Source of the DNA: Candidatus Lokiarchaeum ossiferum
GTDB taxonomy: Archaea; Asgardarchaeota; Lokiarchaeia; Sigyniarchaeales; Promethearchaeaceae
Assembly (NCBI GenBank): GCA_025839675.1
Contig: CP104013.1
Location: 5,250,001 to 5,282,000, forward strand
DNA length: 32,000 bases
Direction: 5' to 3'
In this document: positions 435-32,000 of the stretch, in pieces
Layout of the letters: each line of letters opens with the position of its first letter
How positions within the stretch are numbered: position 1 is the first letter of the stretch
Position numbers and translations under genes: made by a program
The notes under the pieces: generated by a model
The model's input: the letters and a program-made list of their open reading frames with translations, nothing else
Database searches by the model: none
Told to the model about the DNA's origin: nothing

Positions 435-632
435 TTTTTTCACTTTAGATTATTAATTGACTAATTTTGAATTATTCAAAATTTTAAATCTACATAGTAT
501 TTTTTTCATGGCATTTTTAATAGTTTCCTTATGATTCTTTCCGAAAAAAGGAGGGAAAAATTTTCGTTGAATTTACATCCAATCAAATATGAAGTTAAAA
601 ATTTTTTTTTTTCAAGAAAAATATATGCCATC

Positions 633-1640: not shown

Positions 1641-1663
1641 TTCTTTTTATCTCCTACAATTTT

Positions 1664-2305: not shown

Positions 2306-2393
2306 TAACTATTGATCAAAAAAAAAATATTACTTAAATAAATTTGTGAAAGTATAGTAGTGGTTTTTACATGAAAAATGAAGAAATATGTAA

Positions 2394-3512: not shown

Positions 3513-3534
3513 TGTTTATTTTATTGTTCATATT

Positions 3535-5939: not shown

Positions 5940-5962
5940 ATTATCCAAATCTAATTAATTTG

Positions 5963-14631: not shown

Positions 14632-17600
14632 TTACTTTTTCTTTTTTTTTAATATTATTAGAACAACTACCGAGGATAAAACAATTACCCCTGAAGCACC
14701 ACCAATAATAAAATATGTTAAGTTATTACTATTATCTTCATTTTCTAATATAGTTATTATAATTGATTTTTCATTTGATTTACCATAACCATCTTCAATT
14801 ACAATTTTGACTTCATAGGTTCCTGATTCCCAATTGTCTACATTCAATATGATAGAATCTCCAGATTCCCATGAACCAGTACTATATTCTGTTCCATTAA
14901 CATAAATGGTAAATTTTGTGTCCAAATCAAATTCTGGATCTGTAATACTCCATGTAATATTAGAAATAATATTAGTTGAAATCATATCATACATAGGATC
15001 TGATATTTGGGGTATGTTATTTTGTTGTATCGTAATAAAAACAGAATTATATTGTTCTCCACCTGCACCATCAGATAAATACAGTGTATAATTATTTTCC
15101 CCTTCAATTATCCCAGATAATGAAATATTTATCGAATTTTGTCCTTCATTCCAAGATCCTGTCAAAATAATTATATCGTTTTCAAATATGATGAATGTGC
15201 CTGAAGGGCAGTAACTATCTGAAATAATCCAAGAAATTTTAAAATTAGACAAAAATGCATAGCTTGCATTATTTGGAGTAAATACTGTTGGAGCGAGATT
15301 AATTACATTGACCATCAAAGTATCATTTATTTCTTCACCTAAACCATCAAATACTTTTATTGTAATGTTATGCAATCCTATAGATAATGATTCAAGAGAA
15401 AGTGATATTGGCAAAATATTTGTCCAATAGTCTGGATTGTTAATTATATCATTATTTACTGATGAATTATCTATGAAAAGTTCATACGATTGATTCAAAG
15501 TTGAATTATCTTGAACATACCAAGTTAAAATTCGGTCAGTATTATTGAATTCTATTATTATATCCTCATAACTATTTAAAATTGGCTTTTCATTTACAAT
15601 AGTTTTGTTAATTTTGAAAAATATTGAATAATTTTCATCCATATCTTCAATTTCGTTAAAATTATTACCATATAATTTATTTCCATAATTCAGTCCAATT
15701 ATATATTCTTCATTTGATATATTTATTGATCTATAATTAAAACAAATATCTCCATTTTCCCATATAATGGCTTGAAAATCACCAATCATCATATTAGAGG
15801 ATTCAAGAGTAAAATTCATCCATGAAATTACAATATAAGAATCTTGACTATTTACAAATACCTTACTGTCTTCACTTATTTCAACATTAGATAAATATGG
15901 AGCAATTACATAGCTTGTATTTTCAGAAGTTGATGGAAATGAAGATATGGAATCATTAATTTTTGATTCAAAAGCACGAATATATCCACGTAAAGAAATA
16001 TAGAGTGATGAAACTTCTCGGTTAAATAAGGTGAAATTAAAATGAAGAATCTCTAAATATTCTCCCCCATCTTCAAAGGTAATTTCTTTTTGGTTTAAAG
16101 GTTCAATCCATTGAAATCCTGTATTATTATATGCCGTATATTCATACATTGGATATATAATACAATTTACACTTTGATTTTCAGATATTGTGCTATTTCC
16201 ATAAGAATTTTCTGCTACAATTGCATAATAATATGTCTGGTTTTCAAAAACAATATCATGATATTCATTTATTGTTCCACCTATAGTGATTAAAGGTGTT
16301 AATCCTGAGATATCATCTATTTCTGAAATTTCTCTGAAAATATGATAGTAATTAATATCAATTTGATCATTCCAAAATAGTGAGATAAGCCCATCATAAT
16401 TAGGATTTGGATTTATCTCATTTACAATTGGTGCTGAAGGTATATCATAAATTACCTCTACTTGCTCACAATTTGAAATGCTACTGTTTCCATTAATATT
16501 CTCTGCACATATTACATAATAGTATTCATCTTCACTAGGTACTATATCGATAAAAACATTTTCATCATCATCCACTGTTGCAATAGGAAGTGAACTTGAT
16601 ACATCTGTAATGATTGAAGTGTCTCGAAAAATATGATAATTAGAAACTTCTGGCATAATCTGCCAAGTTAGGTAAATATCCCCATCATTATCTGGATTAG
16701 GGGATATTGTAGATAACGTTGTCGGATTAGGCACAGAAAGAGTTACTTCTACTTGTTCACAATCAGATATTGATGAGTTTACAGTGCTATTAGTTGAAAT
16801 TACTACGTAATAATATGTATCATCTACAGATACTATATCATGATAAAAATTATATGATGTTGTTCCTATTGGAGATAAATTTGATATAGAATCGATAATT
16901 GATGTATTTCTGAATATAATGTACTCAATCTCACCTTCCCCAGTTATAAGGTCCCAAACTAAAGTAATATCCCCATCTAAATCAGGATTTGGATCAATTT
17001 CATATAAATTTGGTCTGTTTAATAATATTTGTTGTATTGTTATATTTTTACAATTTGAAATAGTTGAATTAATAAGTCCATTTCCTGCTACAATAACATA
17101 ATAATAAGTTCCATCTGGTACTTTATCGATATATTGTGTTTTAAACCAATCATCTGTAAAGCCTATTGGTAATAATCCGGTGATAGAAGTTATTTCAGAT
17201 TGAGAACGGTAGATATAATAAATACTAGCTTCTTCTATTGAAGACCATGTAATTATTACATCTCCATTATCATTATAACGTTTTGAAACGGATTGCAAAA
17301 CTGGTGTATCTATTTGATCGCCATCAACCACTGGATACATATCATATCTTGATTTACCTTCCGAAGAAAATATATGAATATAATAAGTTCCTGTAGTTGG
17401 AATTGATTTTAATTCAATAATATGAGAGTATTGATAAATATCATCTATAAGAAAAGGTGTAGAATTAAGAATTGTTACTCCATCACCATCTAAAATCTCA
17501 ATTTGCAAATTTGCATATTCATAAGAATTTAAGCAATAAAATGTTAAATTCCAGTTTTCAAGAAGCTCAATTTTATAATAATCATCATCTAAACAATATA

Positions 17601-18144
17601 AATCTGTATAGTATGTATCAAAAATAATTGATTTTGCATTTAAATAATCACTATTACTCTCAAATTCATCATCTTTATAATCATCTATGTATAAATGGTA
17701 ATAATCTTCTGTTCCCCCAAGAAATTCTACCAATATATAATAAGTTTCTGTCGCAGGAATATTTTCTATATAAATATGTGCAGAAAAATCACCTATTTCT
17801 CTTATTCCTACTTCAGTAGTTCCATCTTCTCGATATAAATGAATATCATATAGACAAATTTCTTCTTCAACATAGAAAATAATACTTACATTTTGATTCA
17901 ATATTAGATCAATAGACCACCAATCATCATTATCAAGATATCCATAATCATTTGTATATTTAGAAATTGATGTGGCATCACCTAAATTATCGTTAGGTTC
18001 AGTTTCAAATGAAGATTTTACCGTGAGATTCAACAAGTTTTGATTCACATATTGCATACCTGAAAACACAGTTACAAAACTCATAAAAAAGAAAATTGAA
18101 AAAAATATCAATCCAAAATTTCTTTTTTTATCTTTTTTATACAT
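14632..18144 (-). CDS. Large mosaic cell-surface protein: signal/TM, 2 PPC-like, 4 FN3-like, 1 NIDO-like and 3 Ig-like modules, then a C-terminal TM anchor
   Basis: 1170-aa ORF. N-terminal FGLIFFSIFFFMSFVTVFSG; C-terminal FIIGGASGVIVLSSVVVLIIL followed by KKKKK. Domain blocks are listed separately. It has many N-x-S/T sequons. Confidence 0.85.
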   Translation of the reverse strand: MYKKDKKRNFGLIFFSIFFFMSFVTVFSGMQYVNQNLLNLTVKSSFETEPNDNLGDATSISKYTNDYGYLDNDDWWSIDLILNQNVSIIFYVEEEICLYDIHLYREDGTTEVGIREIGDFSAHIYIENIPATETYYILVEFLGGTEDYYHLYIDDYKDDEFESNSDYLNAKSIIFDTYYTDLYCLDDDYYKIELLENWNLTFYCLNSYEYANLQIEILDGDGVTILNSTPFLIDDIYQYSHIIELKSIPTTGTYYIHIFSSEGKSRYDMYPVVDGDQIDTPVLQSVSKRYNDNGDVIITWSSIEEASIYYIYRSQSEITSITGLLPIGFTDDWFKTQYIDKVPDGTYYYVIVAGNGLINSTISNCKNITIQQILLNRPNLYEIDPNPDLDGDITLVWDLITGEGEIEYIIFRNTSIIDSISNLSPIGTTSYNFYHDIVSVDDTYYYVVISTNSTVNSSISDCEQVEVTLSVPNPTTLSTISPNPDNDGDIYLTWQIMPEVSNYHIFRDTSIITDVSSSLPIATVDDDENVFIDIVPSEDEYYYVICAENINGNSSISNCEQVEVIYDIPSAPIVNEINPNPNYDGLISLFWNDQIDINYYHIFREISEIDDISGLTPLITIGGTINEYHDIVFENQTYYYAIVAENSYGNSTISENQSVNCIIYPMYEYTAYNNTGFQWIEPLNQKEITFEDGGEYLEILHFNFTLFNREVSSLYISLRGYIRAFESKINDSISSFPSTSENTSYVIAPYLSNVEISEDSKVFVNSQDSYIVISWMNFTLESSNMMIGDFQAIIWENGDICFNYRSINISNEEYIIGLNYGNKLYGNNFNEIEDMDENYSIFFKINKTIVNEKPILNSYEDIIIEFNNTDRILTWYVQDNSTLNQSYELFIDNSSVNNDIINNPDYWTNILPISLSLESLSIGLHNITIKVFDGLGEEINDTLMVNVINLAPTVFTPNNASYAFLSNFKISWIISDSYCPSGTFIIFENDIIILTGSWNEGQNSINISLSGIIEGENNYTLYLSDGAGGEQYNSVFITIQQNNIPQISDPMYDMISTNIISNITWSITDPEFDLDTKFTIYVNGTEYSTGSWESGDSIILNVDNWESGTYEVKIVIEDGYGKSNEKSIIITILENEDNSNNLTYFIIGGASGVIVLSSVVVLIILKKKKK
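14749..15591 (-). repeat. Three tandem ~95-aa Ig-like modules (aa ~852-1132)
   Basis: A recurrent pattern appears three times: ..I.W.v.D......y.i..n........W..g..i.i....l..G.hN/Y.i.v.DG.G......v.i. The copies are RILTWYVQDN...GLHNITIKVFDGLGEEIN; KISWIISDSY...GENNYTLYLSDGAGGEQY; NITWSITDPE...GTYEVKIVIEDGYGKSNE. Confidence 0.6.
15715..16062 (-). other. NIDO-like (nidogen-type) extracellular domain pattern (aa ~695-810)
   Basis: By-eye match to the NIDO consensus order: FNFTLFNREVSSLYISLRGYIRAF (fpFfG..y.sLyVs.NG.isF); SFPSTSENTSYVIAPYLSNVEI (fP.....liAPfwaDvd); YIVISWMNF (vvvTWe.V); GDFQAIIWENGDICFNYRSI (NtFQavL.tDG..sF.iFnY..i). Confidence 0.45.
16159..17307 (-). repeat. Four tandem ~95-aa FN3-like repeats (aa ~280-662)
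   Basis: Each unit reads P....i.PNPd.DGdI.L.W......i..Y.IFR....I.....l.Pi.........D.v.....YYYv..A.N..GNSsiS.c..V. For example NPDLDGDITLVWD...YIIFRNTS...TYYYVVISTNSTVNSSISDCEQVEV and NPDNDGDIYLTWQ...YHIFRDTS...EYYYVICAENINGNSSISNCEQVEV. Confidence 0.75.
17335..18003 (-). other. Two tandem PPC-like (pre-peptidase C-terminal type) domains (aa ~48-270)
   Basis: The first copy opens with the hallmark EPNDNLGDATSI, continues with ..DWWSIDL...LYREDG and ends in ETYYILVEFLGGTEDYYHLYI. The second runs FESNSDYLNAKSI...DDDYYKIEL...ILDGDG...GTYYIHIFSSEGKSRYDMY. Confidence 0.55.
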
Positions 18145-18700: not shown

Positions 18701-18708
18701 TTTATATA
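18701..18708 (+). promoter_or_regulatory. Candidate TATA box (tttatata) for the giant ORF
   Basis: It lies 44 nt upstream of the ATG at 18752, which would put a TSS ~20 nt before the start. An aagga SD-like element sits at ~18738-18742. TATA-like strings are frequent in this AT-rich DNA. Confidence 0.3.
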
Positions 18709-18751
18709 AAAAACTGTAAATTAAAACCATAGATTATAAGGACAGAATTTT

Positions 18752-21700
18752 ATGGTTCTAATAAAAAAACAACTAATGAAAAGAAAGATAATGGCTTTCT
18801 TTATTTTAAATTTATTTACGGTATCAACGGCTTTTGATATATTGGCCTCAGGATGTCCTTTTCCAGAGAATATGGAAATTGATTTAAATTTGGGTTATGG
18901 GGTTGAAGATAATTTAACCGGATGGATTGATGGAAAGTTTAAAATTAGAATATATGACGATTTGATTATAAATTGGACTGATAATAAATCTGGATATCGT
19001 AAAATAACGATATGGAATGATGAAGGTAGAAGTATTTTTAGTGATTTTTATTTTTCTCGGGGAGGAGATCAACAATATGTTATTCATCTCGATCCAAATA
19101 ATAATAATTATAATAATTTTCAACCAGGTGAAAATTATTCTTTACAAATCTGCAATTTAATTCACTATTTCTCACCAATTGTTAAATCTTGTTCTGATCT
19201 TATTAATTTTGAAATTATTAAAGCAAAATCACAACTACAATTTATTGAAAATTTAGATTTTGATTCAAATAATCTTGATATGGGGGTTTATATTATTGAT
19301 AAATCAGGATTTCCTGTTGATCCCCATTTTCTCTACAAATATGAAATTGTACTAGCAAATTATTACGAACCACAAAAAAAATTAGCTTTTGAACCAATAA
19401 ATCTTGATTATATAAATCCTAATACGAACAACTATGAAGCAATTACATTTGGAGTTACTGATATAAATGGATTGTTTGAATATGAAGAAAATAAAAACAA
19501 TATTCCTCAAAATTACATTGTAAGATGGAATTATTGTGGAAGTGATTTATATGAAAGTGCATCAATTGTAGATTCTCTTGATTTTGAACATATTTTTTCT
19601 CCATTTGACTATACAGGACCTGATCCTATTGGTGATGATCCTTCTGATGGCAATATTAATTCTTTATCCAATTCTTCTTATTCCTATACCGGGTTAAGAA
19701 AATATTATTCTTGGATAAATGTAACTGAATCCGAATTACAAGGATTTAATTTAGATGATGTCTCAACGTGTTATTATCAATTTGGAGTGTCTGAAGATAG
19801 AGATTCATTATATGTTGGAACAATTTCAAATTTTGATTTTAAGGGAAAATTAATCTCCCCAACTGTTTATTATTATGGAGATGAAGTAAATTATGCAAGT
19901 TTATCCGTAAATTTTGAAGCCTTTAGAGAAGTCAATAAAGATAAAGATCATGTTCCTCATTCAGAGATTTTCAATATTGATGTATTATTATTAGATGAAT
20001 ATGGATCAATACTCGAAAGACAAGACTTATTCAATGGAAATAATACAGATTTTATAACTAAAAAAATATCCTTCAATGAAATTCATTTCAATGAACCCAA
20101 AAAATTCAGAATTGGTTTTGATATATCAATAAATGTTTTTAATAAACACACATGTTGGGATTATTCTGATGAATTTTATTTTTGCATTAGAGAAATAGAT
20201 ATTGACATTATGAATAAAAATGCTCAATGGGCACAAAGTTCAAATTTAGATGACTGGTATGGATATACTTTTTCTGAAAATACAAAAAAAATTAAGTATT
20301 CTGAATTAAATAATGGAGAATATGAATATTTAGCAAATTATCCAGCAGAAAATTGTTTTAATAATACTGAAAATTTGTGGGAAATGCCATTAAATAGTTT
20401 GCTTGATTCTTCAGTTCCTTATACTACAGGAATCCAAAATTATAAATTTGATGAAGATCCTTTTACAAATTCAATTAACACATGGGGTTTAAGTTCAAAT
20501 AATGATGGATTTGATTTTGCTGGAGGATATGTATCTGATATTGGATCTTATTATGACTATTTTTCAAATGGAAACTTAAATACGGAAGGAATTGAATTTA
20601 ATTACCTTGATTTCATAAGATCAGGTCGTAAAACTTATCATAATTTACCATCGTTTAGTTTTGAAAATGTTAAATATCGTAATAAATGGGCAGGTATGTC
20701 AATCCCATTTTCATTATCTGATTTAGGAGATCTATATTCATATAAAGAACTTTTTATTCAATATGACGTTGGTTCTAACCCTGTAACTTGTACTGGATTA
20801 AATTATGAAATAAAAACATTATTAGTCAAACCAGATAATTCGATAATAGAATTGCATAGTCAAAACCATAATCATTTTTATTTTAAATCATTTCAGCATT
20901 CTTTAGAATCATTAGAACCTGGAAATTATCAACTAGTTTTCATAGCTGAGACAGCAAACTGGCATTCCGAAAAAAACATAGATATCTTCTTTGATAATAT
21001 TAAACTAAAATCAACTTTAGAAATTAAAAAAAATGCCTATTCATTTATCGCTAATTCTGGAACTGTAATACCAGAAAATAATGGACCATTATATCTTGAT
21101 GGAGAATTTACAATTAGAAACCAGATTAATTTTACTGAAAATTCAATAAATCAATCTAATTTAGATTTGAAAATTGTGTATGAAAATAAAAAAATAATTA
21201 ATTCATTAGATGATGGAGACGCTGATTTTGCTATTTTTTTTATTCCTATAGAAAATCACACTATTGAACTGGATTCTTATATGATTACAAGCGAGTTTTT
21301 TGATAGTAATTATATAAAGCAGGATGCTATTGTAGATTTAAATAGTTTAAAGGGTAAAAATATCACCCACTTCAAGATTAGGATAAAAATGCATATCCCC
21401 TCATCGACAAGAGGATATTTGAATTCAGCAGATATGTTTTTATTAACATTTTCTAATTTAACTATAATTTCAAATGACACTATAAATGAGTTCAATTATG
21501 TTAGTGATTTTGATTTATGCTCATTTAAGCAAATTACTCTTGATGTATATGCAAAAAAAGATGCTTCATGTAAAAAATATAATAAAAATAGCGCCATATT
21601 AGCCACTTCAATGCAATATTCTTATAAAGATAGTTATGCCATCGCTTCAGTAATGTCTGAAAGAACAAAATCTTTTGGCTTATCAAATACATATTTTAAA

Positions 21701-24700
21701 GGAGACTTAAATTTAACCATTAAAAAATATATTCAATATCCAACATATTATGATAATCCAATTAATTCAAAATTATACTTCGATCTATATTTGGAAAATT
21801 CTAATGGAAATCTAGTAAAAATTTTTACAGAACTTATTTGGGAATCTGATATTTCATCAATAGATTATTTTGATAATCCAAATATTAATTTGTCATTAAA
21901 TCTCGATAATGTTTTTGAAGAATTTTATAATCTAGGCGAGGAGTATTCTGATGTTTATGTGATATCTTATCGAACAGTATTGTCATCACTTAATGATGGA
22001 TTTATTCCTAAACTTGGAGTTGAAATTCTCAAGAGTTCATTAGTTTTAACCGATCAACCTCCGATAGGGAACTGGATTAATTTAAATTCAGGTGATATAA
22101 TTACTGGAAATAAAATGCTTCAAGTTCAAACATTAACTCACGATTGTAATGGAGTTCGGTTCTTAGGTAGTTCAGATGGTGGATTAACATTCAAAACTAT
22201 TGGAGAAACATATGTTCATGATGAAAATTGGATTTTTGGATACGATTTTAATACTGAAGAGAGTATGATTTTCCCAAAAAATGATGAAGATTTCATTGTC
22301 ATTGCACAATTTATGGATGATTATGAAATTGTCAATATTACATCAATTGAAATAATAATTGATAATTCTCCACCTGTTATTTCTTTTGGAAATTCGCTGA
22401 TTAATGATGATATTTTAGTAGAACCAAGAAATATAAAAATTGATACTAATTCAACAGACATTCAATATATTGAACTATATGCTGAAAAATATGATGAGGA
22501 AGGGCAAAAGTTAGAGAAAATTTTAATAATGACTGATGATGATGGAAACGATGGCTGGGAATTTGACTTTAGTCCGTTATTATTAGAACCTTCTATTTAC
22601 AATTTTAATGCGATCGCGTATGATAGAGCATACTTAGAAGGATTTTGTGAGGCTACAAATTTACTTGTAAATTGGATTGATCCGCATTTTTATTATCCAA
22701 CTCCAGAAAATAATAGTTTTGTTAAAGGAACTATTGATTTTTATTTCAGTATTGGAACACCTTGGATTGATAATATTGTCATTTCTACCGCTTCTATATC
22801 TACGTTTAATATTGAAGATGCTGCTTTTCAAGAATACGTTGTTTTAAATAAAAATTCTACTGAAGATATATATCATTTTGATATAAATTCTAAGGATGTG
22901 TTTGGAGAATTCTCAAATGGCTATTATTATATTGAATTTGAATTTAACGTCAATAGCTATTCGCAGAAACATTATTATTGGCTCTATTTTGATAACCAAC
23001 CTATAGTATGTGATATTTCAATAAGTGATACTGTTAAAATCAATGAACATACAATAGATTTTTCATTATATCAACCATTTTCAGGAAATGAATTTAGCAA
23101 TAAAGTCAATGTCCTTGGTGAAGATAATTGGATTGCGGATAGTTTTCCTTTAAATTTGGAAATTATTCCAGCTTATTATGAAGATTTAGTTTATATCCAA
23201 TATTATTTAGAGATTTATAAAAATAATGATATGGAATCTTTAGGAATCTCAGAAAATCTTAATTATTCATATATAACACAAGATATTTATAAATATCATA
23301 AAAATGACATATTAGCTCGCCAATTGGAAGAATTTTCAAATTATTATCCTTCCCAAATAACTGATGGATATTCATTTTTATTAGATGTTAGTAATGGAAT
23401 ATTACATACATTAGGAGAAATAATAGTAGAAGATAATTTAATTGGAAATAATATTTTATATGATTTTAATCAATATCCATATCTTGCCTATATTATTGAA
23501 TTTTCATCAAATGGATTTCCTATTGAATATGTTAATAATCAAAATGAAATGATGGCCTCATCATTAACTAACTTATTTGATGAAGCCTTTAACGATATCT
23601 TAAATGACAATTTTCAAGGAGCTTATGATATAGTTTTGAAAAAAATCAAACCTATATTAACTGGATTAACTACAAATGAAAAAGAAATTCCTTGGACTAC
23701 TCCAGAACGAATATTGATATCTGAATTTAATAATAAAGAAGACATTCAACCTAATCCGAGAATCGATCTATCACATTATCCAGATTGTTATTTTTCATTT
23801 GCAATTGATACGGAAGATAAAGTAGGGAATAAAGCAATTTATTCTACAGAATTATATTTGTTGGATAAAGGAAATCCAAAATCATTAATTGTTTACCCAG
23901 AGTTTAACGAACAAGTAATTCTTCCTGTAAATTTGAATACTAACGAGGAAATTTCCTTGAATTTCTCGATTTATACAAATGATATGGATATTGCTGAACT
24001 CTCATTTAAATCTGCAATAGCATATACAGAATTTTTGGAAAAAAATTTAGATTTATCATTAACACAAATAATGCCGAACCATCTTTCAGAATTTCAAGTT
24101 GTGCTAGATTACGATACTGCATATAGTCTGCTTAATGATTTTACAGATAATCCAACAATTTTTTTTGAAATTGAAATAATCGATCAATTGGGAAAAACTA
24201 GTATTTTAGAATCTGAGTTTTCATGTGTTGAGCAATATGATTACAACTCTCCAAATATCACCATTATTCAAGCACCTAATAATGAAATAACATATACAGG
24301 GGGATTTGATTTAATCTTGGATATTGATGATGTTGATGAAAATGGAAACGAAGGTTCAGGTGTTAAATATATTGAATTATGGGTTAATGAAATAAATAAT
24401 AATTTTGGTCCTGGGGAAATTAATTTTCCGATAATGCGATGGCATTCAATATTAGAACAAAATAAAAAAATATATCCTGAAATTTTTAATAATTTCTTAG
24501 GTTTAGTTTTAGAACCTGAAAATGATGGATATTATCACATTAATCCATGGAATATGTCAGGAAGATATATGGATTTATCAAATTATTCTAATGGTGATTT
24601 TGAGTTCTATATTAAAGTATATGATAATAATTGGAATTATGAAATTATAGAAATAAATGCCAATATAATTATGCCTCAATTTAATATTAAACCGAATTAC

Positions 24701-27700
24701 CCAATTCATACAGATGGTACTTCAAACTCATTAAACTTTAAACTCATAGATTTTGGTAATTCCATTTTGGATATTGAATATATTCTTCATAATGATGATA
24801 TGAGTATAAATGCGATCTCTTCTGATGGAATATTTACTGGTTTAAATAATCAAACTACATATTATTTTGATTTCAAAATATCACAATTAGATGGTTCTAT
24901 TATTTCAAATAATCATACATTTGAATATCCAGAAAAAATATCTAAAGAAATCTATGGGATTTCTTCAAATACTATTCAAAATTATTATCTTCCTTATTCC
25001 ATTCCAATCGATAATAGTGTCCCTTATGAATTTTCATTCACAATACAAAATGATGATGTTATTCAAGATTATTATGTATTAGAAGCTAATTGGCTTGGAG
25101 AAGGAATTGTAGAAGAGAAAATTTTGTATGTCGATGGCAAAATAGCCGATTCTGTTGAAGAATTATCTGCCATTTCGATTAACAATAATGCAAAATATTT
25201 AATCAATACTTATGAACTGAAAGATGGAAATCATAATTTCAGTTTAGAAGTTTTATTTAATAATCAAAACTCTGAAAACAGTTCCATAGTTAATTTTATT
25301 GTAGATAATTCTCTTCCCTTATGGATTTCGAGTGGATTTTGGATAAATAATATTTCTCAATATTCCATTCCATCAAATTATAATGAAAATCCTATAGTAT
25401 ATACAAATAATCAAGTTGAAATTCAAGTTAATGCATATGACCCCCAATCAAAATTGAAGAATCTCGAAATATGGATTCAAAATGATGAAGGATTAAGTGA
25501 AATCTATAAGGATATTCCTCTTGAAACATCTATTGTAGATTATTCTACATTTTTAACTATAGAAGATTTAAATAATCTATTTATATTTAAAGATGGAAAT
25601 TATATAGTTTGGGTTAAGTTGATTGGAGAATCAGGATTGATTGAATCTCAAATAATAGAATTATCTCTCATGACTGAATTACCAACAGGAAATTTTATAA
25701 ATCCTTATCTACCGACGAATTATGAAAATCAAATCATCAATTTAGATTTTAAAACCGTTATGAATATTGAGTTAATAAAATCTGTGGAGTTTTTTATCCA
25801 AACTCAAGGTAACTTAAATGATTTTGAGCTGAATATAGACTTATTAAAATGGTTAGGTTATGGTTCAATTGAAATGGATTCTTCAGATGAATTTTATTAT
25901 TCATTTGATTATATTAATGATGAATATCATGATACAAATGCAACTTTTTGGGTTAAAATTATTGATAGAGCAGGAAATGTCAACTATATTAGAACAAGTG
26001 ATAATCATTATATCATCCTGTATAAAATTGAACTTGATAATTTTAATGGAATATTATATTTAGATGATAATGAAAATATAAATGGTAACTTAATTAACTA
26101 TGAAAATTCAAGTGCAACTGCTGAATTAAGTATTTTTAATGGGATTTCTTATATACCCCTTGAAGGAACTGAAACTTTAATTGGAGATGGTGGATCTTTT
26201 ACAATAAATTGGGTTGATAATAATCAGAATATTCCAACTGAGTTAACTGAAGGTTTTATTCCAATAAATTGCATAGAATTTTCAGATTATGGAAATTACC
26301 AACTCTATAGTCAAAATTTTGTCCAATCAGGTAAATTTAATAATAGTGACAACTATCAGATCGCTTTAATAACAGGTAATTCAAATCCATTTTTGTATAT
26401 ATTTGATCATTCCCTCTCGAGTATTTATGAATGGGATGTAAAATCTGTTGAAATTGGTAATATTGGTTCAAATGTAATTCAGGTCAATAATTGGGATGTT
26501 GATAACGATGGGTTTAATGAGTTAGTTATTTTATCCGATATGTGTCTGACCGTTATAGATTGGAACACAGAATATGCTATTTGGCAAATTAATACATATC
26601 CATTTTCAAATAACAACCATATTAACGATTTATCAATAACTGAACAGTATCCAATTAATATGGATTATAATTCAACCCATATAATAATAGGATTTAAAAA
26701 CACAATATATTCCTTTTCAATTGATGCTAATTTAGCGATGGAATTACACGAATTATGGGAAATCCCTTCAGGTGAAGAATTAATTCAATTTACTTACAAT
26801 GAAATTATTGGTTTTGCAACTTTATTAATTATTACAAAACAATCAATATATTATTTGAAAGATAAATCTTGGAATTTGATATTTAGTACATCATATAATT
26901 TATTATCTTCTGTTTTTGTTGAAAATTTAGATTTAGATCCGGAAAACGAAATAATATTTGGAGTATTAAGCAATTTTGGAACTGATATTGTTCAAGCCAA
27001 ATACAATTATGAATTTAATGGATGGGAATTTGTCTCTACAGTTCTTTTTTCAAATTTAAATAAAATATATGATATAAAAATGGGGCATTTATCAAATACA
27101 AATTTAGGAAATATCGTAATTGCTTCCAATGAAGGATTATCTATTGTAAATCCTCCATATCTTGAAAAAAAGCAGGAATATGGCCTTGATCCAACTAATA
27201 TTGTCACTACGAATGAATCTCATAATGGAATTTATGAAGATTATTATTCTGATATAAATCAATATAAATATTCTGCAGAAAAAGGCTATATGAGTGCAGA
27301 ATTTCCAACAAGTATTACAAAAACAGAGAATTTATTGTCGATATCTGCACCCCAAGCATCGGAACAAAAATATGTATCACCTAAACATTTCTTGTCAACA
27401 GCGACAACATCAAATTCGAGATTATCAAGTAAGATTGACACAGGTATTAATTCAAATAACTATTTTGCATCATCGATCATTAATTCTTTTTCCGGTGGCT
27501 CTACATCTGAATTCAATGGTTTAACTCAAGATGAATTAGATTCCTATCCCTGGAATACAAAATATTTTGGATATTCGTTCGTCAACCATGATTATATTAA
27601 AAATAGTTATTTTAATACTGAATCAAGTAACACAGTAATAACAACGAGTGAAGGTGCGCAAGGATATTTTGAAGATTACAATAATCTTAAAGGATCAATC

Positions 27701-30700
27701 AAATTTAGTTGTGATTTCAATGAAGAAAGTTCAATTGATTTAGAAAGTGAAGAAAATTATGATCTATTTCCAAGAACATGGGTTCCTAAAACATATAATG
27801 GTAGAGATATCCTTGAAGCAAATGGCTGGGATCATATAATGGCTTTTGATGATCTTGATATTAGAACTGATGGTGTTGCACAGAACGTTTCGGATATTGA
27901 ATTTCATATAGAAGTTGCAAAATCAGATTGGAGAGATGTTGATGATTTAATATATAAAATCATCCCAATGGATGGAATAATACAAGAATTAGGTGATTGG
28001 CATGATATTTCTGAAACACAAACATTTGACATTCCTTTGGATGTAGAATCTTTAACCGTAGAAGAATTCAATGATTTGTACATATATATCGCCGATAATC
28101 TTATTGGTCGATTATCATTCTATACTGATACGGTTTCCTTAGATTATACATTAAATAATTTCAAACCTGATGATGTTATCTATAATGGCATAGAATTAAA
28201 ATTGACTTATGGTGATGACAAAACTGTCACTGTTGATTTACCTTCGAATTCCTACGTGGAATATAGTATTGATGATGATGATGTAATATTTAATTATAAT
28301 ATTCCAAAATCTCTTATTAATAGCTATGAAAAAGTTAAGAAAATCGAATTTATTTTGGATAAACCTTCATACTACGATGTTACTGTCGATTACAATCGAT
28401 TAATTGGCGATTATGATAATTCCAATACGGATTATTGGGATAATGTGGTTAATGCTGATACTCTTAATCATTTAAAGTATGAACAAGAATTTACTTATAC
28501 CTTTGGCGATGAATTTATAGATTTCAGTTTCAATCCCAATGTAAATATCAATTTTAAAGGTTTTTCATTAGCATCTACCAACTTTGGTAGTGAAAAAACA
28601 TTAGATTCAATCACTGATGAGTTTTCCAATATGAAATTTCTTTCAACTATATACATTAAAGATACTTCAAACATAGTCCGTACTTATGGTGATCCGCAGT
28701 TTTCTACAATAAATAATGGCAAACAATGTACTATGGATGAATTTACCTTTTATTATGATAGTTTACTTGCAAATAATTTACTCGTATCTGATCAAGGAAA
28801 TTATAATTTAAAATTCATTATTATTACTGAAATTATTTTAGAAGATCCTTCAAACGATTATATATTTAATCACGATAATTGGGCATTAAAACCAATTATT
28901 AACATTCCAGTAAATTGTCTAAATACTGCTAAAATAAGATTGGATAAGAATTCATATATTGATTCTCAAAATTCATTTACAGAAAAGACATATCAAATCT
29001 TTAAACAAAATCAATTAGACCTTATCAAGTTATCAGACACTGGTTTGCGTGTTGATTTTAATAGTGTAATAAATTACAATATGACAGCATTTCAAAATAA
29101 TAATGAAGTTAGCATCTCTGAGTATATTCATGATGGTTTTCTATCAAATTTCCCATTAAAGATTAGTGTCTCATCAAATAATGCATTGATCAGTTCATCA
29201 TTATCAATTAAAATCTCAGATAATTTGAATGTTGGATCTATTTCTGGCTCAAATTCAATTCAGGTAATATATACAAAAGATCTATATCTTTATCCTGATG
29301 AAATTACTCTTGATATTTCAGGATCTATATATGATTTTGATAGTTTAGATTCTGATATTTATCTTTATTTGAAATTTGAAATATTCAATGAAGGAGTCAA
29401 TGGGAAGTGGATGAATTCGATTGATTCTTTAACTAGTACAAGATTTGATTTTGATATTTCTGAATCAAATGAAAATTATATCTATCCAGATACATTAGAA
29501 TCACTAACTCATTTCGATTATTACTACAATGAGGAATCAAAATCAAATCCAAGAGCAAAAACCATTCCCCTTAATCTCTTAATTGAAGATAAGATAATTA
29601 ACAAATTGAGCGGTGAGGACTTTGAACAGAAGGTTCAAGAAATTAGAAAAATTGAACTTTCACTTGAAGGTAGTATTGCTCATTATTTATGGAATAATCC
29701 TGAAAGTGGTGGAATTTCTTCTTCTTCAAGCTTTATAAATCAGAATCTATTTAATCCAGAATTTCATGATCCAATGGAAGGCAGTAATTGGATAAGTGAT
29801 AATGCTGGAAAAAGTACTATATGTATTCAAAACGAATTAACAACTATTAATTTACTTCCATCACCTAATATTCATTCAAACCAGTTTATCTTTAATTATA
29901 GCATATCACCATATTCTGAAAGTAATTATGAGCTTATTGATTCAATATATAAAGAAGATGGAAATTATTACCTGAGATATCTTTTAATCATTGATCAAAA
30001 CAATTACATATTAGAGAACCATAGTAATTTTGACAGTTCACTTATAAAAATTGATATTTCCAAAATTCATTTAACGTATAGTGTAATAAATGGTAATGAA
30101 TCTATTAGAGAAAGCAATTATGAAGAAATCCAAGAATTTCGACTGGATATTGACGATTCGAATGATCTTGATACTTTAGATATCTCATCTTTATTCAGTA
30201 TTAATATTAGTTCAACATTACCAAATACTGAAACATTATTTGCTACTGACGAGGATTTAATATGGGGTAATAATCCAATATCATATTTAGCACTAAAAAA
30301 CAAATATACTGCACAATATGATATTTTATTGGAAAATAGTGTTGAAATGGTGATATCTGATAATTTAAGAATACTTTCATCGAATAACTTGAAACTATAT
30401 TTATATGAAAATTTTGAGCAATATTTACAATATGATAGTACTCTTGGACTATACTTTATTGAGGGAAGAAATGGAATTCTATGGTCCTTACGGAACGAAA
30501 GATTTGAAACCTTGAAAATGAATTGTGAAGTTATTGATAGTGAGGTTCAAATTGAATTAGAATCTTGGAATTCAGATGTAGAATTACTTAATAATGGTAA
30601 AACTAAAACTGTTTCAATCGCTGATGCTGATGGAGATAATGATCAAGATATAATACTAGATACTTCAACTGTAATCTATCAGCAAAAAAATGAAGCAACT

Positions 30701-32000
30701 TATGCCATGAAAATATCTACCTTTGATAATGATGATGAATTGATTTGTGATATGAATTTCTTAGCAATTCAAGATAGAGGGGCACCTCATCCAGAATTTT
30801 TTGGTCATCTATCAGAAATTGTGGAATTTGGTCGAAATTTTAGCCTAAATGTTGTTGATTATTCCACTGATTTAACTGATATTTATTTATTTTATTCATA
30901 TAATGAAACTGGACCATTTATTGAATTAGATCATCAATCTATTACAGAGACCCAGAATTATTTCAGATATGAAATTGATAGTGAAAATTCTTCAGCATAT
31001 TTAAACGAAGGTAAAATATTTTTCAATTTTACCTGTACTGATGATTCAGGTTTAAATGGTTCAACAATATTATCATGTATAATTGATAGATCTCCTATTG
31101 ATCCACTATTTTCTGTAATTGATTTTGAGAAGACAATATTGGATGAAAATGACGATGAGATGAATTGTATATCAGTTCAAAGTAATATTGAAATTGATAT
31201 TCCTTATGAAGCAGAAACTGAAAGTGATTTAGATTATATCAAATTGTTCTTAATTTGTAATGATGAAATCATATGGAAGAATACATACTTCCCCTCTGAT
31301 TTAGTAAGAAGTGAAAATGGATATGAACTTCAATTCAATATATATGAAAATGTCATCAAATACATTATGAACTATAATATTAGCGATACTCTAAGGTTTG
31401 AATGGCAGACTGTAGATAAAGCTTGTAATATTCATGAATTTAAAAAAAATTATACCTTCAATCTTGATTCCGATTTTGAAATTTTCCTATGCAATGATGA
31501 TGGACTCATGCTTAATCAAAATGAAATAGATTTCTATTATTATAATGAATATATTAATGGAAAAGTTGTTGATTCATTTGGACAACCATTACCCAAGGAT
31601 TTTGAGTTTGATTTGTGCTTAGATGGTCTTATTCTCAATAAAACAAAGATTACTAATAATTATGGTAGTTTCAACGCTAAAATTGTTTCTTGTGAGTTGT
31701 ATTCTAATGATTTAAGATATAATCAAGATGTAATAATTAATGGAATTGATGGGAAATTTGAACAAGATAAGTCTATTCAAATGGGTGCGGGACTATCCTC
31801 AAGGTATTCACAAATTGATGCAGTAAATCGCTTATTTTTGGAAAGTGACAAGGGAAATATAGTCTTGAAATATGAAAATATGGATTACTCTGAATATAAT
31901 ATACTTGATGGATTTGAAGGATTTCATTTTGACTTGTTTATTCCGGCTGCAGTAAGCTATTTGTCTGGATCTACATTTAGTGAAATTCAATTGCAATTCT
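18752..32000 (+). CDS. Giant secreted/cell-surface protein, partial (at least 4416 aa; 3' end beyond the window): signal peptide, many diverged Ig-like modules, FG-GAP-like propeller region
   Basis: Not in the supplied track. An in-frame TAA at 18737-18739 is followed by the first ATG at 18752. My codon-by-codon reading found no stop to position 32000. I re-checked the frame at 22361, 25301, 26501 and 30620. The track lists no ORF in this frame here, which it would if any in-frame stop closed an ORF of 60 aa or more. All other-frame ORFs in the interval are 76 aa or shorter. The N-terminus is MVLIKKQLMKRKIMAFFILNLFTVSTAFDILASGC. Confidence 0.9.
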   Translation, partial: MVLIKKQLMKRKIMAFFILNLFTVSTAFDILASGCPFPENMEIDLNLGYGVEDNLTGWIDGKFKIRIYDDLIINWTDNKSGYRKITIWNDEGRSIFSDFYFSRGGDQQYVIHLDPNNNNYNNFQPGENYSLQICNLIHYFSPIVKSCSDLINFEIIKAKSQLQFIENLDFDSNNLDMGVYIIDKSGFPVDPHFLYKYEIVLANYYEPQKKLAFEPINLDYINPNTNNYEAITFGVTDINGLFEYEENKNNIPQNYIVRWNYCGSDLYESASIVDSLDFEHIFSPFDYTGPDPIGDDPSDGNINSLSNSSYSYTGLRKYYSWINVTESELQGFNLDDVSTCYYQFGVSEDRDSLYVGTISNFDFKGKLISPTVYYYGDEVNYASLSVNFEAFREVNKDKDHVPHSEIFNIDVLLLDEYGSILERQDLFNGNNTDFITKKISFNEIHFNEPKKFRIGFDISINVFNKHTCWDYSDEFYFCIREIDIDIMNKNAQWAQSSNLDDWYGYTFSENTKKIKYSELNNGEYEYLANYPAENCFNNTENLWEMPLNSLLDSSVPYTTGIQNYKFDEDPFTNSINTWGLSSNNDGFDFAGGYVSDIGSYYDYFSNGNLNTEGIEFNYLDFIRSGRKTYHNLPSFSFENVKYRNKWAGMSIPFSLSDLGDLYSYKELFIQYDVGSNPVTCTGLNYEIKTLLVKPDNSIIELHSQNHNHFYFKSFQHSLESLEPGNYQLVFIAETANWHSEKNIDIFFDNIKLKSTLEIKKNAYSFIANSGTVIPENNGPLYLDGEFTIRNQINFTENSINQSNLDLKIVYENKKIINSLDDGDADFAIFFIPIENHTIELDSYMITSEFFDSNYIKQDAIVDLNSLKGKNITHFKIRIKMHIPSSTRGYLNSADMFLLTFSNLTIISNDTINEFNYVSDFDLCSFKQITLDVYAKKDASCKKYNKNSAILATSMQYSYKDSYAIASVMSERTKSFGLSNTYFKGDLNLTIKKYIQYPTYYDNPINSKLYFDLYLENSNGNLVKIFTELIWESDISSIDYFDNPNINLSLNLDNVFEEFYNLGEEYSDVYVISYRTVLSSLNDGFIPKLGVEILKSSLVLTDQPPIGNWINLNSGDIITGNKMLQVQTLTHDCNGVRFLGSSDGGLTFKTIGETYVHDENWIFGYDFNTEESMIFPKNDEDFIVIAQFMDDYEIVNITSIEIIIDNSPPVISFGNSLINDDILVEPRNIKIDTNSTDIQYIELYAEKYDEEGQKLEKILIMTDDDGNDGWEFDFSPLLLEPSIYNFNAIAYDRAYLEGFCEATNLLVNWIDPHFYYPTPENNSFVKGTIDFYFSIGTPWIDNIVISTASISTFNIEDAAFQEYVVLNKNSTEDIYHFDINSKDVFGEFSNGYYYIEFEFNVNSYSQKHYYWLYFDNQPIVCDISISDTVKINEHTIDFSLYQPFSGNEFSNKVNVLGEDNWIADSFPLNLEIIPAYYEDLVYIQYYLEIYKNNDMESLGISENLNYSYITQDIYKYHKNDILARQLEEFSNYYPSQITDGYSFLLDVSNGILHTLGEIIVEDNLIGNNILYDFNQYPYLAYIIEFSSNGFPIEYVNNQNEMMASSLTNLFDEAFNDILNDNFQGAYDIVLKKIKPILTGLTTNEKEIPWTTPERILISEFNNKEDIQPNPRIDLSHYPDCYFSFAIDTEDKVGNKAIYSTELYLLDKGNPKSLIVYPEFNEQVILPVNLNTNEEISLNFSIYTNDMDIAELSFKSAIAYTEFLEKNLDLSLTQIMPNHLSEFQVVLDYDTAYSLLNDFTDNPTIFFEIEIIDQLGKTSILESEFSCVEQYDYNSPNITIIQAPNNEITYTGGFDLILDIDDVDENGNEGSGVKYIELWVNEINNNFGPGEINFPIMRWHSILEQNKKIYPEIFNNFLGLVLEPENDGYYHINPWNMSGRYMDLSNYSNGDFEFYIKVYDNNWNYEIIEINANIIMPQFNIKPNYPIHTDGTSNSLNFKLIDFGNSILDIEYILHNDDMSINAISSDGIFTGLNNQTTYYFDFKISQLDGSIISNNHTFEYPEKISKEIYGISSNTIQNYYLPYSIPIDNSVPYEFSFTIQNDDVIQDYYVLEANWLGEGIVEEKILYVDGKIADSVEELSAISINNNAKYLINTYELKDGNHNFSLEVLFNNQNSENSSIVNFIVDNSLPLWISSGFWINNISQYSIPSNYNENPIVYTNNQVEIQVNAYDPQSKLKNLEIWIQNDEGLSEIYKDIPLETSIVDYSTFLTIEDLNNLFIFKDGNYIVWVKLIGESGLIESQIIELSLMTELPTGNFINPYLPTNYENQIINLDFKTVMNIELIKSVEFFIQTQGNLNDFELNIDLLKWLGYGSIEMDSSDEFYYSFDYINDEYHDTNATFWVKIIDRAGNVNYIRTSDNHYIILYKIELDNFNGILYLDDNENINGNLINYENSSATAELSIFNGISYIPLEGTETLIGDGGSFTINWVDNNQNIPTELTEGFIPINCIEFSDYGNYQLYSQNFVQSGKFNNSDNYQIALITGNSNPFLYIFDHSLSSIYEWDVKSVEIGNIGSNVIQVNNWDVDNDGFNELVILSDMCLTVIDWNTEYAIWQINTYPFSNNNHINDLSITEQYPINMDYNSTHIIIGFKNTIYSFSIDANLAMELHELWEIPSGEELIQFTYNEIIGFATLLIITKQSIYYLKDKSWNLIFSTSYNLLSSVFVENLDLDPENEIIFGVLSNFGTDIVQAKYNYEFNGWEFVSTVLFSNLNKIYDIKMGHLSNTNLGNIVIASNEGLSIVNPPYLEKKQEYGLDPTNIVTTNESHNGIYEDYYSDINQYKYSAEKGYMSAEFPTSITKTENLLSISAPQASEQKYVSPKHFLSTATTSNSRLSSKIDTGINSNNYFASSIINSFSGGSTSEFNGLTQDELDSYPWNTKYFGYSFVNHDYIKNSYFNTESSNTVITTSEGAQGYFEDYNNLKGSIKFSCDFNEESSIDLESEENYDLFPRTWVPKTYNGRDILEANGWDHIMAFDDLDIRTDGVAQNVSDIEFHIEVAKSDWRDVDDLIYKIIPMDGIIQELGDWHDISETQTFDIPLDVESLTVEEFNDLYIYIADNLIGRLSFYTDTVSLDYTLNNFKPDDVIYNGIELKLTYGDDKTVTVDLPSNSYVEYSIDDDDVIFNYNIPKSLINSYEKVKKIEFILDKPSYYDVTVDYNRLIGDYDNSNTDYWDNVVNADTLNHLKYEQEFTYTFGDEFIDFSFNPNVNINFKGFSLASTNFGSEKTLDSITDEFSNMKFLSTIYIKDTSNIVRTYGDPQFSTINNGKQCTMDEFTFYYDSLLANNLLVSDQGNYNLKFIIITEIILEDPSNDYIFNHDNWALKPIINIPVNCLNTAKIRLDKNSYIDSQNSFTEKTYQIFKQNQLDLIKLSDTGLRVDFNSVINYNMTAFQNNNEVSISEYIHDGFLSNFPLKISVSSNNALISSSLSIKISDNLNVGSISGSNSIQVIYTKDLYLYPDEITLDISGSIYDFDSLDSDIYLYLKFEIFNEGVNGKWMNSIDSLTSTRFDFDISESNENYIYPDTLESLTHFDYYYNEESKSNPRAKTIPLNLLIEDKIINKLSGEDFEQKVQEIRKIELSLEGSIAHYLWNNPESGGISSSSSFINQNLFNPEFHDPMEGSNWISDNAGKSTICIQNELTTINLLPSPNIHSNQFIFNYSISPYSESNYELIDSIYKEDGNYYLRYLLIIDQNNYILENHSNFDSSLIKIDISKIHLTYSVINGNESIRESNYEEIQEFRLDIDDSNDLDTLDISSLFSINISSTLPNTETLFATDEDLIWGNNPISYLALKNKYTAQYDILLENSVEMVISDNLRILSSNNLKLYLYENFEQYLQYDSTLGLYFIEGRNGILWSLRNERFETLKMNCEVIDSEVQIELESWNSDVELLNNGKTKTVSIADADGDNDQDIILDTSTVIYQQKNEATYAMKISTFDNDDELICDMNFLAIQDRGAPHPEFFGHLSEIVEFGRNFSLNVVDYSTDLTDIYLFYSYNETGPFIELDHQSITETQNYFRYEIDSENSSAYLNEGKIFFNFTCTDDSGLNGSTILSCIIDRSPIDPLFSVIDFEKTILDENDDEMNCISVQSNIEIDIPYEAETESDLDYIKLFLICNDEIIWKNTYFPSDLVRSENGYELQFNIYENVIKYIMNYNISDTLRFEWQTVDKACNIHEFKKNYTFNLDSDFEIFLCNDDGLMLNQNEIDFYYYNEYINGKVVDSFGQPLPKDFEFDLCLDGLILNKTKITNNYGSFNAKIVSCELYSNDLRYNQDVIINGIDGKFEQDKSIQMGAGLSSRYSQIDAVNRLFLESDKGNIVLKYENMDYSEYNILDGFEGFHFDLFIPAAVSYLSGSTFSEIQLQF
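26318..27150 (+). other. FG-GAP/VCBS-like beta-propeller region inside the giant ORF
   Basis: Blade-like segments carry D-x-[DN]-x-D-G-type loops: NNWDVDNDGFNELVILSD (D-loop at 26501), VENLDLDPENEIIFGV, MGHLSNTNLGNIVIASNEG. An isolated further motif SIADADGDNDQDIILDTS lies at 30614-30667. Confidence 0.5.

Follow-up and report, generated by a model that had tools for sequence, protein, structure and literature searches.

A 7,593-residue surface protein of Candidatus Lokiarchaeum ossiferum as a candidate carrier of a polymorphic toxin-immunity-type system in Asgard archaea

Introduction

The window analysed here, a stretch of 32,000 nucleotides from the genome of the Asgard archaeon Candidatus Lokiarchaeum ossiferum (contig CP104013.1 of assembly GCA_025839675.1, positions 5,250,001 to 5,282,000 of the forward strand), ends inside a reading frame that is open over its last 13 kb. 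An earlier note, made from the letters of the window, had singled out this giant open reading frame (ORF), which raises the questions of where it closes and what its product does. The frame proves to be a gene for a protein of 7,593 residues, and this giant protein is held here, with moderate confidence, to be the carrier of a polymorphic toxin-immunity-type system that would be specific to Asgard archaea and would serve cell-to-cell conflict or kin recognition. The informative part of the giant ORF may thus sit wholly outside the window in which it was noticed.

Polymorphic toxin systems have been described as rare in archaea, and most of the immunity superfamilies are absent there (Zhang et al. 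2012, PMC3482391). As of 2021 no archaeal system had been characterised experimentally (PMC8416519), and the passage of that paper that touches on the matter cites Makarova et al. (2019) for their later prediction. L. ossiferum has been reported to lack an ordered S-layer and to carry "complex surface proteins" that protrude from its single membrane, some of them connecting parts of the protrusion network; the passages of that paper drawn on here assign none of these proteins to a gene (PMC9834061).

A single open frame of 7,593 codons

Recomputed from the ATG at 18752 on the plus strand to base 32000, the giant frame contains 4,416 sense codons and 0 stops, and it is stop-free from 18740 onwards, following an in-frame TAA at 18737-18739. 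Because the region's own base composition (27% GC) leads one to expect stops in 8.9% of codons, the probability of such a run is about 1e-178, and the earlier statements that the frame is open throughout and beyond the reach of chance both hold. The remaining five frames have 274-728 stops each over the same region, with a longest open stretch of 142 codons, and the GC content of the giant frame at codon positions 1, 2 and 3 is 36.6, 27.9 and 16.5%, which is a clear coding periodicity. No recoding is involved: the window can be read throughout with the standard genetic code, under which the remainder of it is densely filled with ordinary genes, and alternative codes were dropped for the same reason. 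A mechanical ORF lister skips the giant ORF, which runs off the window end, and this explains its absence from the ORF track available to the earlier note, as that note had itself supposed.

The frame was therefore unannotated in that track, whereas in the public records it is annotated, as a hypothetical protein of L. ossiferum that the window part matches at 100% over its full length. The GenBank entry (NEF87_004486 / UYP48201.1; 7,593 aa) starts at the ATG at 18752, and the RefSeq entry (WP_457917599.1; 7,585 aa) starts 8 codons later. Residue numbers below refer to the 7,593-aa version (P0003), and the RefSeq version is called P0001. The full 7,593-codon frame together with its stop codon is found in two independent Logan assemblies, SRR22273278 and SRR22273277 (loci L003 and L004), and both contigs reproduce window positions 18400-32000 at 100% with 0 gaps. 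Extended in this way, as the earlier note had proposed, the gene ends at the window-equivalent position 41533, so that the window holds its first 58% (4,416/7,593 codons). A chimeric or frameshifted contig is very unlikely because the two assemblies are identical without gaps over the full frame, and no in-frame stop, frameshift or chimera was seen in them. Upstream of the giant gene, both Logan contigs break off at the very same point, window position 18400. The giant open frame is a real gene.

A family restricted to Asgard archaea as far as labelled

When the whole window part served as the query of a word-indexed search for homologues, the giant protein itself and nothing else was returned. 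A full-length homologue, P0004, surfaced as a cluster member of a 1,320-aa fragment: it has 7,451 aa, is encoded on a 33.9-kb contig of assembly GCA_040961015.1 (locus L002) in DNA of 40% GC, and matches the L. ossiferum protein collinearly across residues 9-2994 and 3540-7361, with 37.7-38.7% identity. An exhaustive HMMER search of 1.84 billion representative proteins with the last 1,200 residues retrieved only 23 proteins, several of which align collinearly to the C-terminal half of the giant protein (P0010 from residue 3628, P0014 from residue 4843). The named sources of the family read "Promethearchaeota archaeon" or "Candidatus Sigynarchaeota archaeon". Scans for family loci gave 0 loci in a first and 3 in a second pass through genomes, and 1 small locus in metagenomes; the three loci, in species-representative genomes, belong to metagenome-assembled genomes of Promethearchaeota. 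The family thus appears to be rare and, as far as its members are labelled, confined to Asgard archaea.

Polymorphic C-terminal tails behind an Asp-Pro junction

Similarity among the family members ends abruptly at a short motif. In the giant protein this junction reads F-N-M-V-D-P (residues 7321-7326) and is followed by a tail of 267 aa (7327-7593). The general form, [hydrophobic]-x-[hydrophobic]-[V/I/S]-D-P, is present in 13/13 members that cover the region and marks the end of similarity in them. In pairwise BLAST comparisons of these 13 members, similarity is detected among nearly all of the 400-aa segments that precede the junction. Their tails, in contrast, range from 186 to 1,221 aa, and only four pairs of them are similar, which leaves about nine unrelated types. 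The clearest case is provided by P0004 and P0002, the latter from a sister assembly, which are 91% identical over 1,130 residues, whereas their last ~190 residues are unrelated; at the DNA level the identity is 91.8% up to the junction, beyond which the sequences are abruptly unrelated. The genes downstream differ as well, encoding a leucine-rich repeat (LRR) protein at the P0002 locus (L001) and a WD40 protein at the P0004 locus. The family thus shows a trait of polymorphic toxins, namely backbones that are homologous and end abruptly in C-terminal domains without mutual relationship.

In CDI (contact-dependent inhibition) and Rhs loci, a pre-junction segment lying behind the current tail and partner pair is the established trace of an older cassette displaced by recombination (Zhang et al. 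2012). One such orphan, in decayed form, was found at the P0004 locus: a 394-bp remnant (L002:31612-32005) located after the WD40 gene is 87.6% identical to the pre-junction segment. The source segment ends about 5 codons before the Asp-Pro, and the orphan copy is frameshifted and closed by stops. The 105-aa ORF that a gene caller placed over the remnant is in the wrong frame.

A deaminase signature in the L. ossiferum tail

The only Pfam match of the L. ossiferum tail is PF14424, "Toxin-deaminase, BURPS668_1122 family" (24.3-26.9 bits, E 4e-5 to 6e-6). Over ~190-250 residues the tail aligns with P0024, a protein of 247 aa, with a phmmer E of 2.4e-4 against 1.84 billion proteins and a pairwise BLAST E of 7.6e-12, and a profile built from the two retrieves only PF14424-bearing proteins. 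P0024 and P0026-29 all carry PF14424 themselves. The BURPS668_1122 clade is defined by RxxDxExK in helix 2 (Hel-2) and CxxCxS in helix 3 (Hel-3), with DxE in place of HxE or CxE; its description covers bacterial members and one from a eukaryote, and archaea are absent from the list (Iyer et al. 2011, PMC3239186). In an alignment of six sequences, R..D-T-E-x-K and P-P-C-x-S are invariant, and the second Cys of CxxC is present in 5/6 rows, that of the tail included. The tail has RYTDTERK at 7512-7519 and PPCRSCQK at 7549-7556, so that all the predicted zinc and catalytic residues (D7515, E7517, C7551 and C7554) are in place and the RxxDxExK and CxxC elements of the signature are both found; the final S of CxxCxS is K in the tail. 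Membership of the tail in the PF14424/BURPS668_1122-type deaminases is likely because of this clade signature and the homology to PF14424 proteins, and not by Pfam score or by fold.

Among the relatives of the tail, P0026 lies in a bacterial array of tandem cassettes of PF14424 toxin and Imm3. The closest relatives with a name are encoded in a classical cassette array at a bacterial locus (L005:2707-6013), with RecR nearby, where there are two PF14424 toxin-deaminase genes, the first of them followed by Imm3.

Partner genes downstream of the tail

The gene directly after the giant gene encodes a protein of 520 aa and starts 8 nt before the stop codon of the giant frame, with which it overlaps (ATGATTGA; both Logan contigs). 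Residues 25-145 of this partner form a SUKH-1 domain (SMI1_KNR4, PF09346) that scores 39.8 bits in the whole protein and 44.2 bits in the N-terminal piece, against a cut-off of 25.4; SUKH_5 and SUKH_6 match as well. The remainder consists of about 14 LRRs, and hydropathy gives no signal peptide or transmembrane (TM) segment. Among the immunity superfamilies known from polymorphic toxin systems, SUKH is the best known (PMC3113570; PMC3482391); it is also listed among the immunity proteins of the BURPS668_1122 clade (PMC3239186), and Imm-LRR is a recognised immunity class as well (PMC3482391). We take the product of this SUKH-1 and LRR gene to be the cytoplasmic cognate immunity or inhibitor protein of the tail.

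Ten family loci can be compared downstream of the family gene (Table 1). The segments that precede the LRRs in the partners are ~45-195 aa long and mutually dissimilar except for one tandem pair. Given that LRR partners recur with unrelated tails, only the N-terminal pre-LRR segment, which is the SUKH domain in L. ossiferum, could be specific to the tail.

Membrane module and predicted topology

Between the ectodomain and the junction lies a hydrophobic module. It opens with a helix-turn-helix hairpin (residues 6615-6636 and 6643-6659) that is apparent both from hydropathy and from an AlphaFold model, continues with an acidic loop of ~290 aa and a third long hydrophobic helix (6959-6985), and leads through a helical region of ~330 aa to the junction. 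The model, made with 16 family sequences, has a mean predicted local distance difference test (pLDDT) score of 50.7, and the hairpin and the third helix (~70-84) are its best-supported parts. A Foldseek search of PDB with the module model gave nothing significant.

The loop is as acidic as the ectodomain, and the last 600 residues, unlike both, are charge-balanced. Across the family, the sequences flanking the hairpin carry net charges of -2.0 (before) and -1.7 (after), and those flanking the third helix -0.6 (before) and +1.4 (after). Read by the positive-inside rule, these charge counts suggest that the ectodomain and the loop are outside and the C-terminus inside.

As to N-x-S/T sequons, residues 6995-7593 (L003:21335-23131) contain 0, compared with 5.6 +/- 2.2 expected from the composition, and the 290-aa loop between the hydrophobic helices contains 4, compared with 1.6 expected.

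N-terminus and ectodomain

The N-terminus has the layout of a signal peptide, a Lys/Arg-rich segment followed by a hydrophobic core, as noticed earlier from the sequence. The Kyte-Doolittle peak of 1.93 falls at residues 5-23 counted from the RefSeq start, and the same layout is found in P0004, so that, by hydropathy alone, both the giant protein and its homologue have a predicted N-terminal export signal, as carriers of polymorphic toxins do. A Cys follows the hydrophobic region in both: its context is L-A-S-G-C in the L. ossiferum protein and F-G-S-A-C in P0004, that is, the Cys is kept and position -3 is A or G. Measured against the archaeal lipobox consensus ([L/V/I]-[A/S/T]-[G/A]-C after the h-region), the site at Cys35 is equally compatible with cleavage by signal peptidase I and with a non-canonical lipobox.

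The window part of the protein is rich in Asn, Ile, Asp, Tyr and Phe (N 10.8%, I 10.8%, D 8.2%, Y 6.8%, F 6.2%), and the ectodomain is acidic (D+E 16% vs K+R 6%), the ~4,380 window residues after the signal region being acidic and rich in N, I, Y and F as a whole. This composition agrees with the earlier description. The many N-x-S/T sequons mentioned there did not stand up: the window part has 49, fewer than the 65.7 +/- 6.9 found in composition-preserving shuffles, and enrichment was rejected. The impression of many sequons arose because the protein is merely Asn/Ser/Thr-rich. By hydrophobic periodicity, a crude measure, 53.7% of the windows in the ectodomain are beta-like, a modest excess over 47.2 +/- 1.5% in shuffles, and the C-terminal region of the giant protein is alpha-like. 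Seven calcium-type motifs resembling Dx[DN]xDG are scattered over the giant protein. The Ser/Thr-rich linker reported in the earlier note is real and, in the conservation profile, opens the least conserved stretch of the ectodomain; within residues ~2995-3540 BLAST gives no alignment to P0004, and a global alignment gives 20-26% identity with 10-28% gaps.

Repeats were found at neither level, since Tandem Repeats Finder detects no nucleotide arrays in the giant gene, as had been noticed from the letters, and 81 overlapping sliding profile hidden Markov models run against the protein itself give off-diagonal scores that are all <5 bits. Nor does the 4,416-aa window part match any entry of Pfam (E up to 1), NCBIfam or the PDB sequences, the last of these searched both with the single sequence and with a 2-sequence profile, and the earlier finding of no recognisable catalytic motif or family inside the window stands. 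The sole hint is a WD40 protein (Rae1) at residues 2439-2525 with a non-significant E of 0.6. It is consistent with our impression of a propeller-like stretch at residues ~2480-2830. The ectodomain (~6,580 aa, acidic and non-repetitive) is probably beta-rich and most likely makes up one of the long structures on the surface of this cell, which has no S-layer.

Upstream region and neighbouring genes

The giant gene is separated from a divergently transcribed gene for a 1,170-aa surface protein by an intergenic region of 607 bp (18145-18751), in which an A/T box (Table 1) could act as a promoter element. The product of the divergent gene aligns with a 1,668-aa protein encoded by the upstream divergent gene of L002 in several BLAST high-scoring segment pairs (24-30% identity, E down to 7e-17). 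Since the P0004 locus has this homologous divergent surface protein upstream, the head-to-head arrangement is conserved. The earlier observation that the giant gene adjoins surface proteins holds. The 1,170-aa protein has no Pfam match; its L002 homologue has a PPC domain. The TldD/PmbA-family pair listed in Table 1 lies directly upstream of the surface-protein cluster. No Rfam families were found in the window.

Table 1. Coordinates of features in the window (positions without a locus label) and at related family loci.
Feature	Position	Strand	Basis
Housekeeping run: AMP-binding enzyme fragment running off the window start, PHO4 phosphate transporter, PhoU-like protein	1..5392	-	
Same run: lipoate-protein ligase and radical-SAM protein (ORFs overlap by 29 nt), one 372-aa protein without Pfam match	1..5392	-	
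463-aa protein: N-terminal Roadblock/LC7 (PF03259, E 1.4e-6), a domain typical of Asgard genomes, and long acidic C-terminal extension	5963..7354	-	Pfam
TldD/PmbA-family metallopeptidases, tandem pair	9816..11219, 11231..12610	+	
Second surface protein: N-terminal signal, C-terminal TM segment then basic tail (…YLRKKS), no Pfam match	12639..14561	+	Hydropathy, Pfam
1,170-aa surface protein: N-terminal signal, C-terminal TM segment then KKKKK (…LIILKKKKK)	14632..18144	-	Hydropathy
TATA-like A/T box TTTATATAAAAAA, ~40-50 nt upstream of the ATG (candidate)	18701..18713	+	Sequence
AGGA upstream of the giant-gene ATG	18739..18742	+	Sequence
Giant gene, first 4,416/7,593 codons (NEF87_004486)	18752..32000	+	Open frame, 100% database match, two assemblies, collinear P0004
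Predicted signal peptide, Lys/Arg-rich n-region then hydrophobic core, IMAFFILNLFTVSTAFDIL	18752..18853	+	Hydropathy, P0004 layout
Alternative RefSeq ATG	18776..18778	+	P0001 vs P0003
Cys35, directly after A-S-G	18854..18856	+	Sequence, both orthologues
Ser/Thr-rich linker, residues ~2860-2925	27329..27526	+	Sequence
Poorly conserved central region, residues ~2995-3540	27734..29371	+	Comparison with P0004
LRR protein immediately downstream of a family gene	L003, L001, L008, L011, L012, L013	Same	6/10 loci
WD40 protein downstream of a family gene	L002		1/10 loci
No partner downstream of a family gene	L009, L014, L015		3/10 loci
Short complete family members	L011:8001-14891, L012:8001-12677, L013:8001-10724, L014:5278-15165		Start inside ectodomain- or loop-homologous region

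Comparison with known systems

The nearest counterparts are the polymorphic toxin systems of bacteria, such as CdiA/CdiI, Rhs and MafB (Zhang et al. 2012, PMC3482391), which likewise combine a large secreted carrier, a conserved backbone, a short border motif and a variable C-terminus with a partner gene directly downstream, displaced orphan copies of the pre-junction segment, and immunity classes that include SUKH and LRR proteins. The differences are considerable. The host is a single-membrane archaeon, and neither FHA, RHS/YD or PAAR repeats nor genes of type V, type VI or type VII secretion systems are present; the stalk of the giant protein is non-repetitive, the junction has a new motif and a three-helix hydrophobic module in front of it, and the tail is predicted to lie in the cytoplasm. 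A toxin, an immunity domain and an evolutionary logic of known kinds would be combined here with a new carrier, a new membrane module and a new motif at the junction. The border motifs of the bacterial systems are VENN in CdiA and DPxGL in Rhs.

For its parts, the tail resembles the BURPS668_1122 deaminases in the RxxDxExK of helix 2, the PCxxC of helix 3, the predicted helix-strand-helix-strand order and the link to SUKH immunity, but it falls under the Pfam cut-off, has K for S after CxxC-x, carries ~180 extra residues before its core, and is attached to an archaeal giant protein. The partner resembles SUKH-1 proteins (SMI1/KNR4, PF09346; Zhang et al. 2011, PMC3113570) in having an above-threshold domain directly after a toxin-like C-terminus and no signal peptide, and differs from them in its fusion to ~14 LRRs. 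In archaea, the VARTIG module of Thermococcales (PMC8416519) offers a parallel: it is a large surface protein with a C-terminus made hypervariable by recombination and with variable downstream genes, and it has been likened to polymorphic toxins. Unlike the giant protein, it has recognisable immunoglobulin (Ig) domains and no recognised toxin or immunity domains, and there is no sequence relationship between the two families.

Giant adhesins of the RTX, Bap and SiiE type are acidic surface proteins of several thousand residues with Dx[DN]xDG-like motifs and with Ig-like tandem arrays that are visible in the DNA. The giant protein is like these in size, acidity and its seven scattered calcium-type motifs. 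It differs from them in having neither repeats nor Ig-type domains of Pfam or NCBIfam, and its C-terminus consists of a TM module and a putative effector.

Discussion

The earlier note had seen in the ORF a candidate for cell-cell interaction without a described family. A cell-cell role remains compatible with the data; as to the missing family, the C-terminal 1,000 aa and the next gene have a polymorphic toxin-immunity architecture. If the giant protein is such a carrier, its ectodomain would make contact with another cell, the tail would be set free at or near the Asp-Pro junction, the released tail would act as a toxin in cells that have no matching partner protein, and recombination at the junction would exchange cassettes of tail and partner among strains. 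The gene and its homologues, the polymorphism of the tails, the junction motif, the deaminase signature, the SUKH domain and the orphan in one relative are seen in the sequences; toxicity, immunity, cleavage at Asp-Pro and the route of delivery are the conditional parts of this scheme.

Several results weigh against it. First, the tail itself fits its assigned family imperfectly: its PF14424 score of 26.9 bits falls 2.7 bits short of the gathering threshold of 29.6, its AlphaFold (AF2) model is poor (pLDDT 43), with the motifs nevertheless in the expected helix-strand-helix-strand order, and a Foldseek search of PDB with this model found nothing significant, the top match being the double-stranded DNA deaminase DddB at E 0.57. 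Second, none of the other tails compared (those of P0002, P0004, P0005, P0007, P0008, P0011, P0014, P0017, P0018, P0020 and P0023) matches a Pfam toxin family. The tail of P0002 (L001:3506-4188), with its H-M-E-S and S-P-C-x7-C motifs, looked deaminase-like by eye, but this resemblance was dropped because hhalign showed no similarity to the PF14424-type alignment. Third, the LRR partner recurs with unrelated tails, and its LRR part may therefore be a constant component and not the variable immunity gene; in L. ossiferum the sequence past the giant gene is covered up to 1.6 kb downstream. Fourth, some family members are complete but short (907-3,295 aa) and have no signal peptide. These may represent orphan cassettes that have starts of their own, or else a form with another function. 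Fifth, no known toxin export system or processing peptidase was found near the giant gene among the genes of the window. Finally, the charge counts and the composition suggest an N-out/C-in topology with the tail in the cytoplasm of the producer, unlike the classical secreted polymorphic toxins. Delivery would then need membrane fusion or exchange, or another step, because the tail is predicted to face the producer's own cytoplasm. The same topology leaves room for a self-directed effector triggered by contact, or for transfer after a transient fusion of membranes between protrusions.

A bolder and, on balance, unlikely reading is that Asgard archaea have polymorphic carriers of their own that are embedded in the membrane. 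The exchangeable effector would be cytoplasmic and coupled to the ectodomain by the three helices, restrained by a cytoplasmic LRR, SUKH or WD40 partner, released at the Asp-Pro, and active either in the producer, as suicide or editing triggered by contact or infection, or in a partner cell after transient fusion of protrusions.

It is unlikely, if a serious contender, that the giant protein is purely an outside-in sensor with a self-directed effector, in which the ectodomain would sense surface contact or damage (for example an attaching virus or a non-kin cell), the cytoplasmic tail would be set free at the Asp-Pro junction and act on the cell's own nucleic acids in suicide, dormancy or editing, and the SUKH, LRR or WD40 protein would be its inhibitor in the cytoplasm, with no delivery to other cells. 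The family-wide charge bias that predicts the N-out/C-in topology speaks for a sensor, as do the change from an acidic ectodomain and loop to a balanced C-terminal region, the hairpin and third helix as the best-supported parts of the module model (pLDDT ~70-84), partner proteins that have no signal peptide or TM segment, and the lack of secretion or processing genes found nearby. However, the topology depends on charge counts and on a model of low confidence (mean pLDDT 50.7), and the abrupt replacement of tails on 91%-identical backbones, together with the orphan, is the signature of an arms race between strains that is expected of delivered toxins, with the limit that some defence systems diversify their effectors too. 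The closest relatives of the tail, moreover, are bacterial cassettes of secreted toxins paired with Imm3, which also favours a delivered toxin over a sensor.

It is rather improbable that the giant protein is in essence an adhesin or a structural fibre of the surface, holding protrusions or cells together. Its C-terminus would be an anchor with a cytoplasmic docking site, its tail inactive or regulatory, and its LRR partner a cytoskeletal or signalling adaptor. A plain adhesin explains the window part, with its size, its signal peptide, its acidic and modestly beta-type ectodomain, its surface-protein neighbours in conserved synteny and its want of a catalytic motif, and the recurrence of the LRR partner whatever the type of tail would fit an adaptor; surface densities that connect parts of the protrusion network in electron cryo-tomography (cryo-ET), as far as they are described in the cited passages of PMC9834061, point the same way. 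What it does not explain is the conserved Asp-Pro junction with wholesale replacement of the tail behind it, the orphan remnant, the intact predicted catalytic and zinc residues, or the SUKH immunity domain in the partner; typical giant adhesins, besides, consist of tandem repeats, and none are detectable here.

An artefact is highly improbable, whether a contig chimera, a pseudogene or a set of shorter genes mistaken for a single one, as nothing positive speaks for it (both Logan contigs end upstream of the gene) and it would have to be reconciled with a closed genome and two independent short-read assemblies that agree on an identical 7,593-codon frame, with a ~38%-identity homologue in DNA of 40% GC that keeps one collinear frame of 7,451 codons, and with the negligible probability of a stop-free run and the strong periodicity of GC by codon position.

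Implications

The candidate system belongs to one of very few cultured Asgard archaea, whose biology is thought to depend on contacts with partner cells through protrusions. If the giant protein does carry a polymorphic system of the toxin-immunity type, a surface structure that ranks among the largest of L. ossiferum would receive a name, and a system of kin discrimination or antagonism in Asgard archaea would become testable in culture. The polymorphic-toxin repertoire would gain a carrier scaffold and a junction motif that are both new, and the tail might prove to be a new archaeal nucleic-acid deaminase, a class of enzyme of interest for base editing. If the carrier is instead embedded in the membrane with its effector inside, the logic of delivery would have no bacterial counterpart, and it would provide a handle on self/non-self recognition in the close contacts between cells that are invoked for eukaryogenesis.

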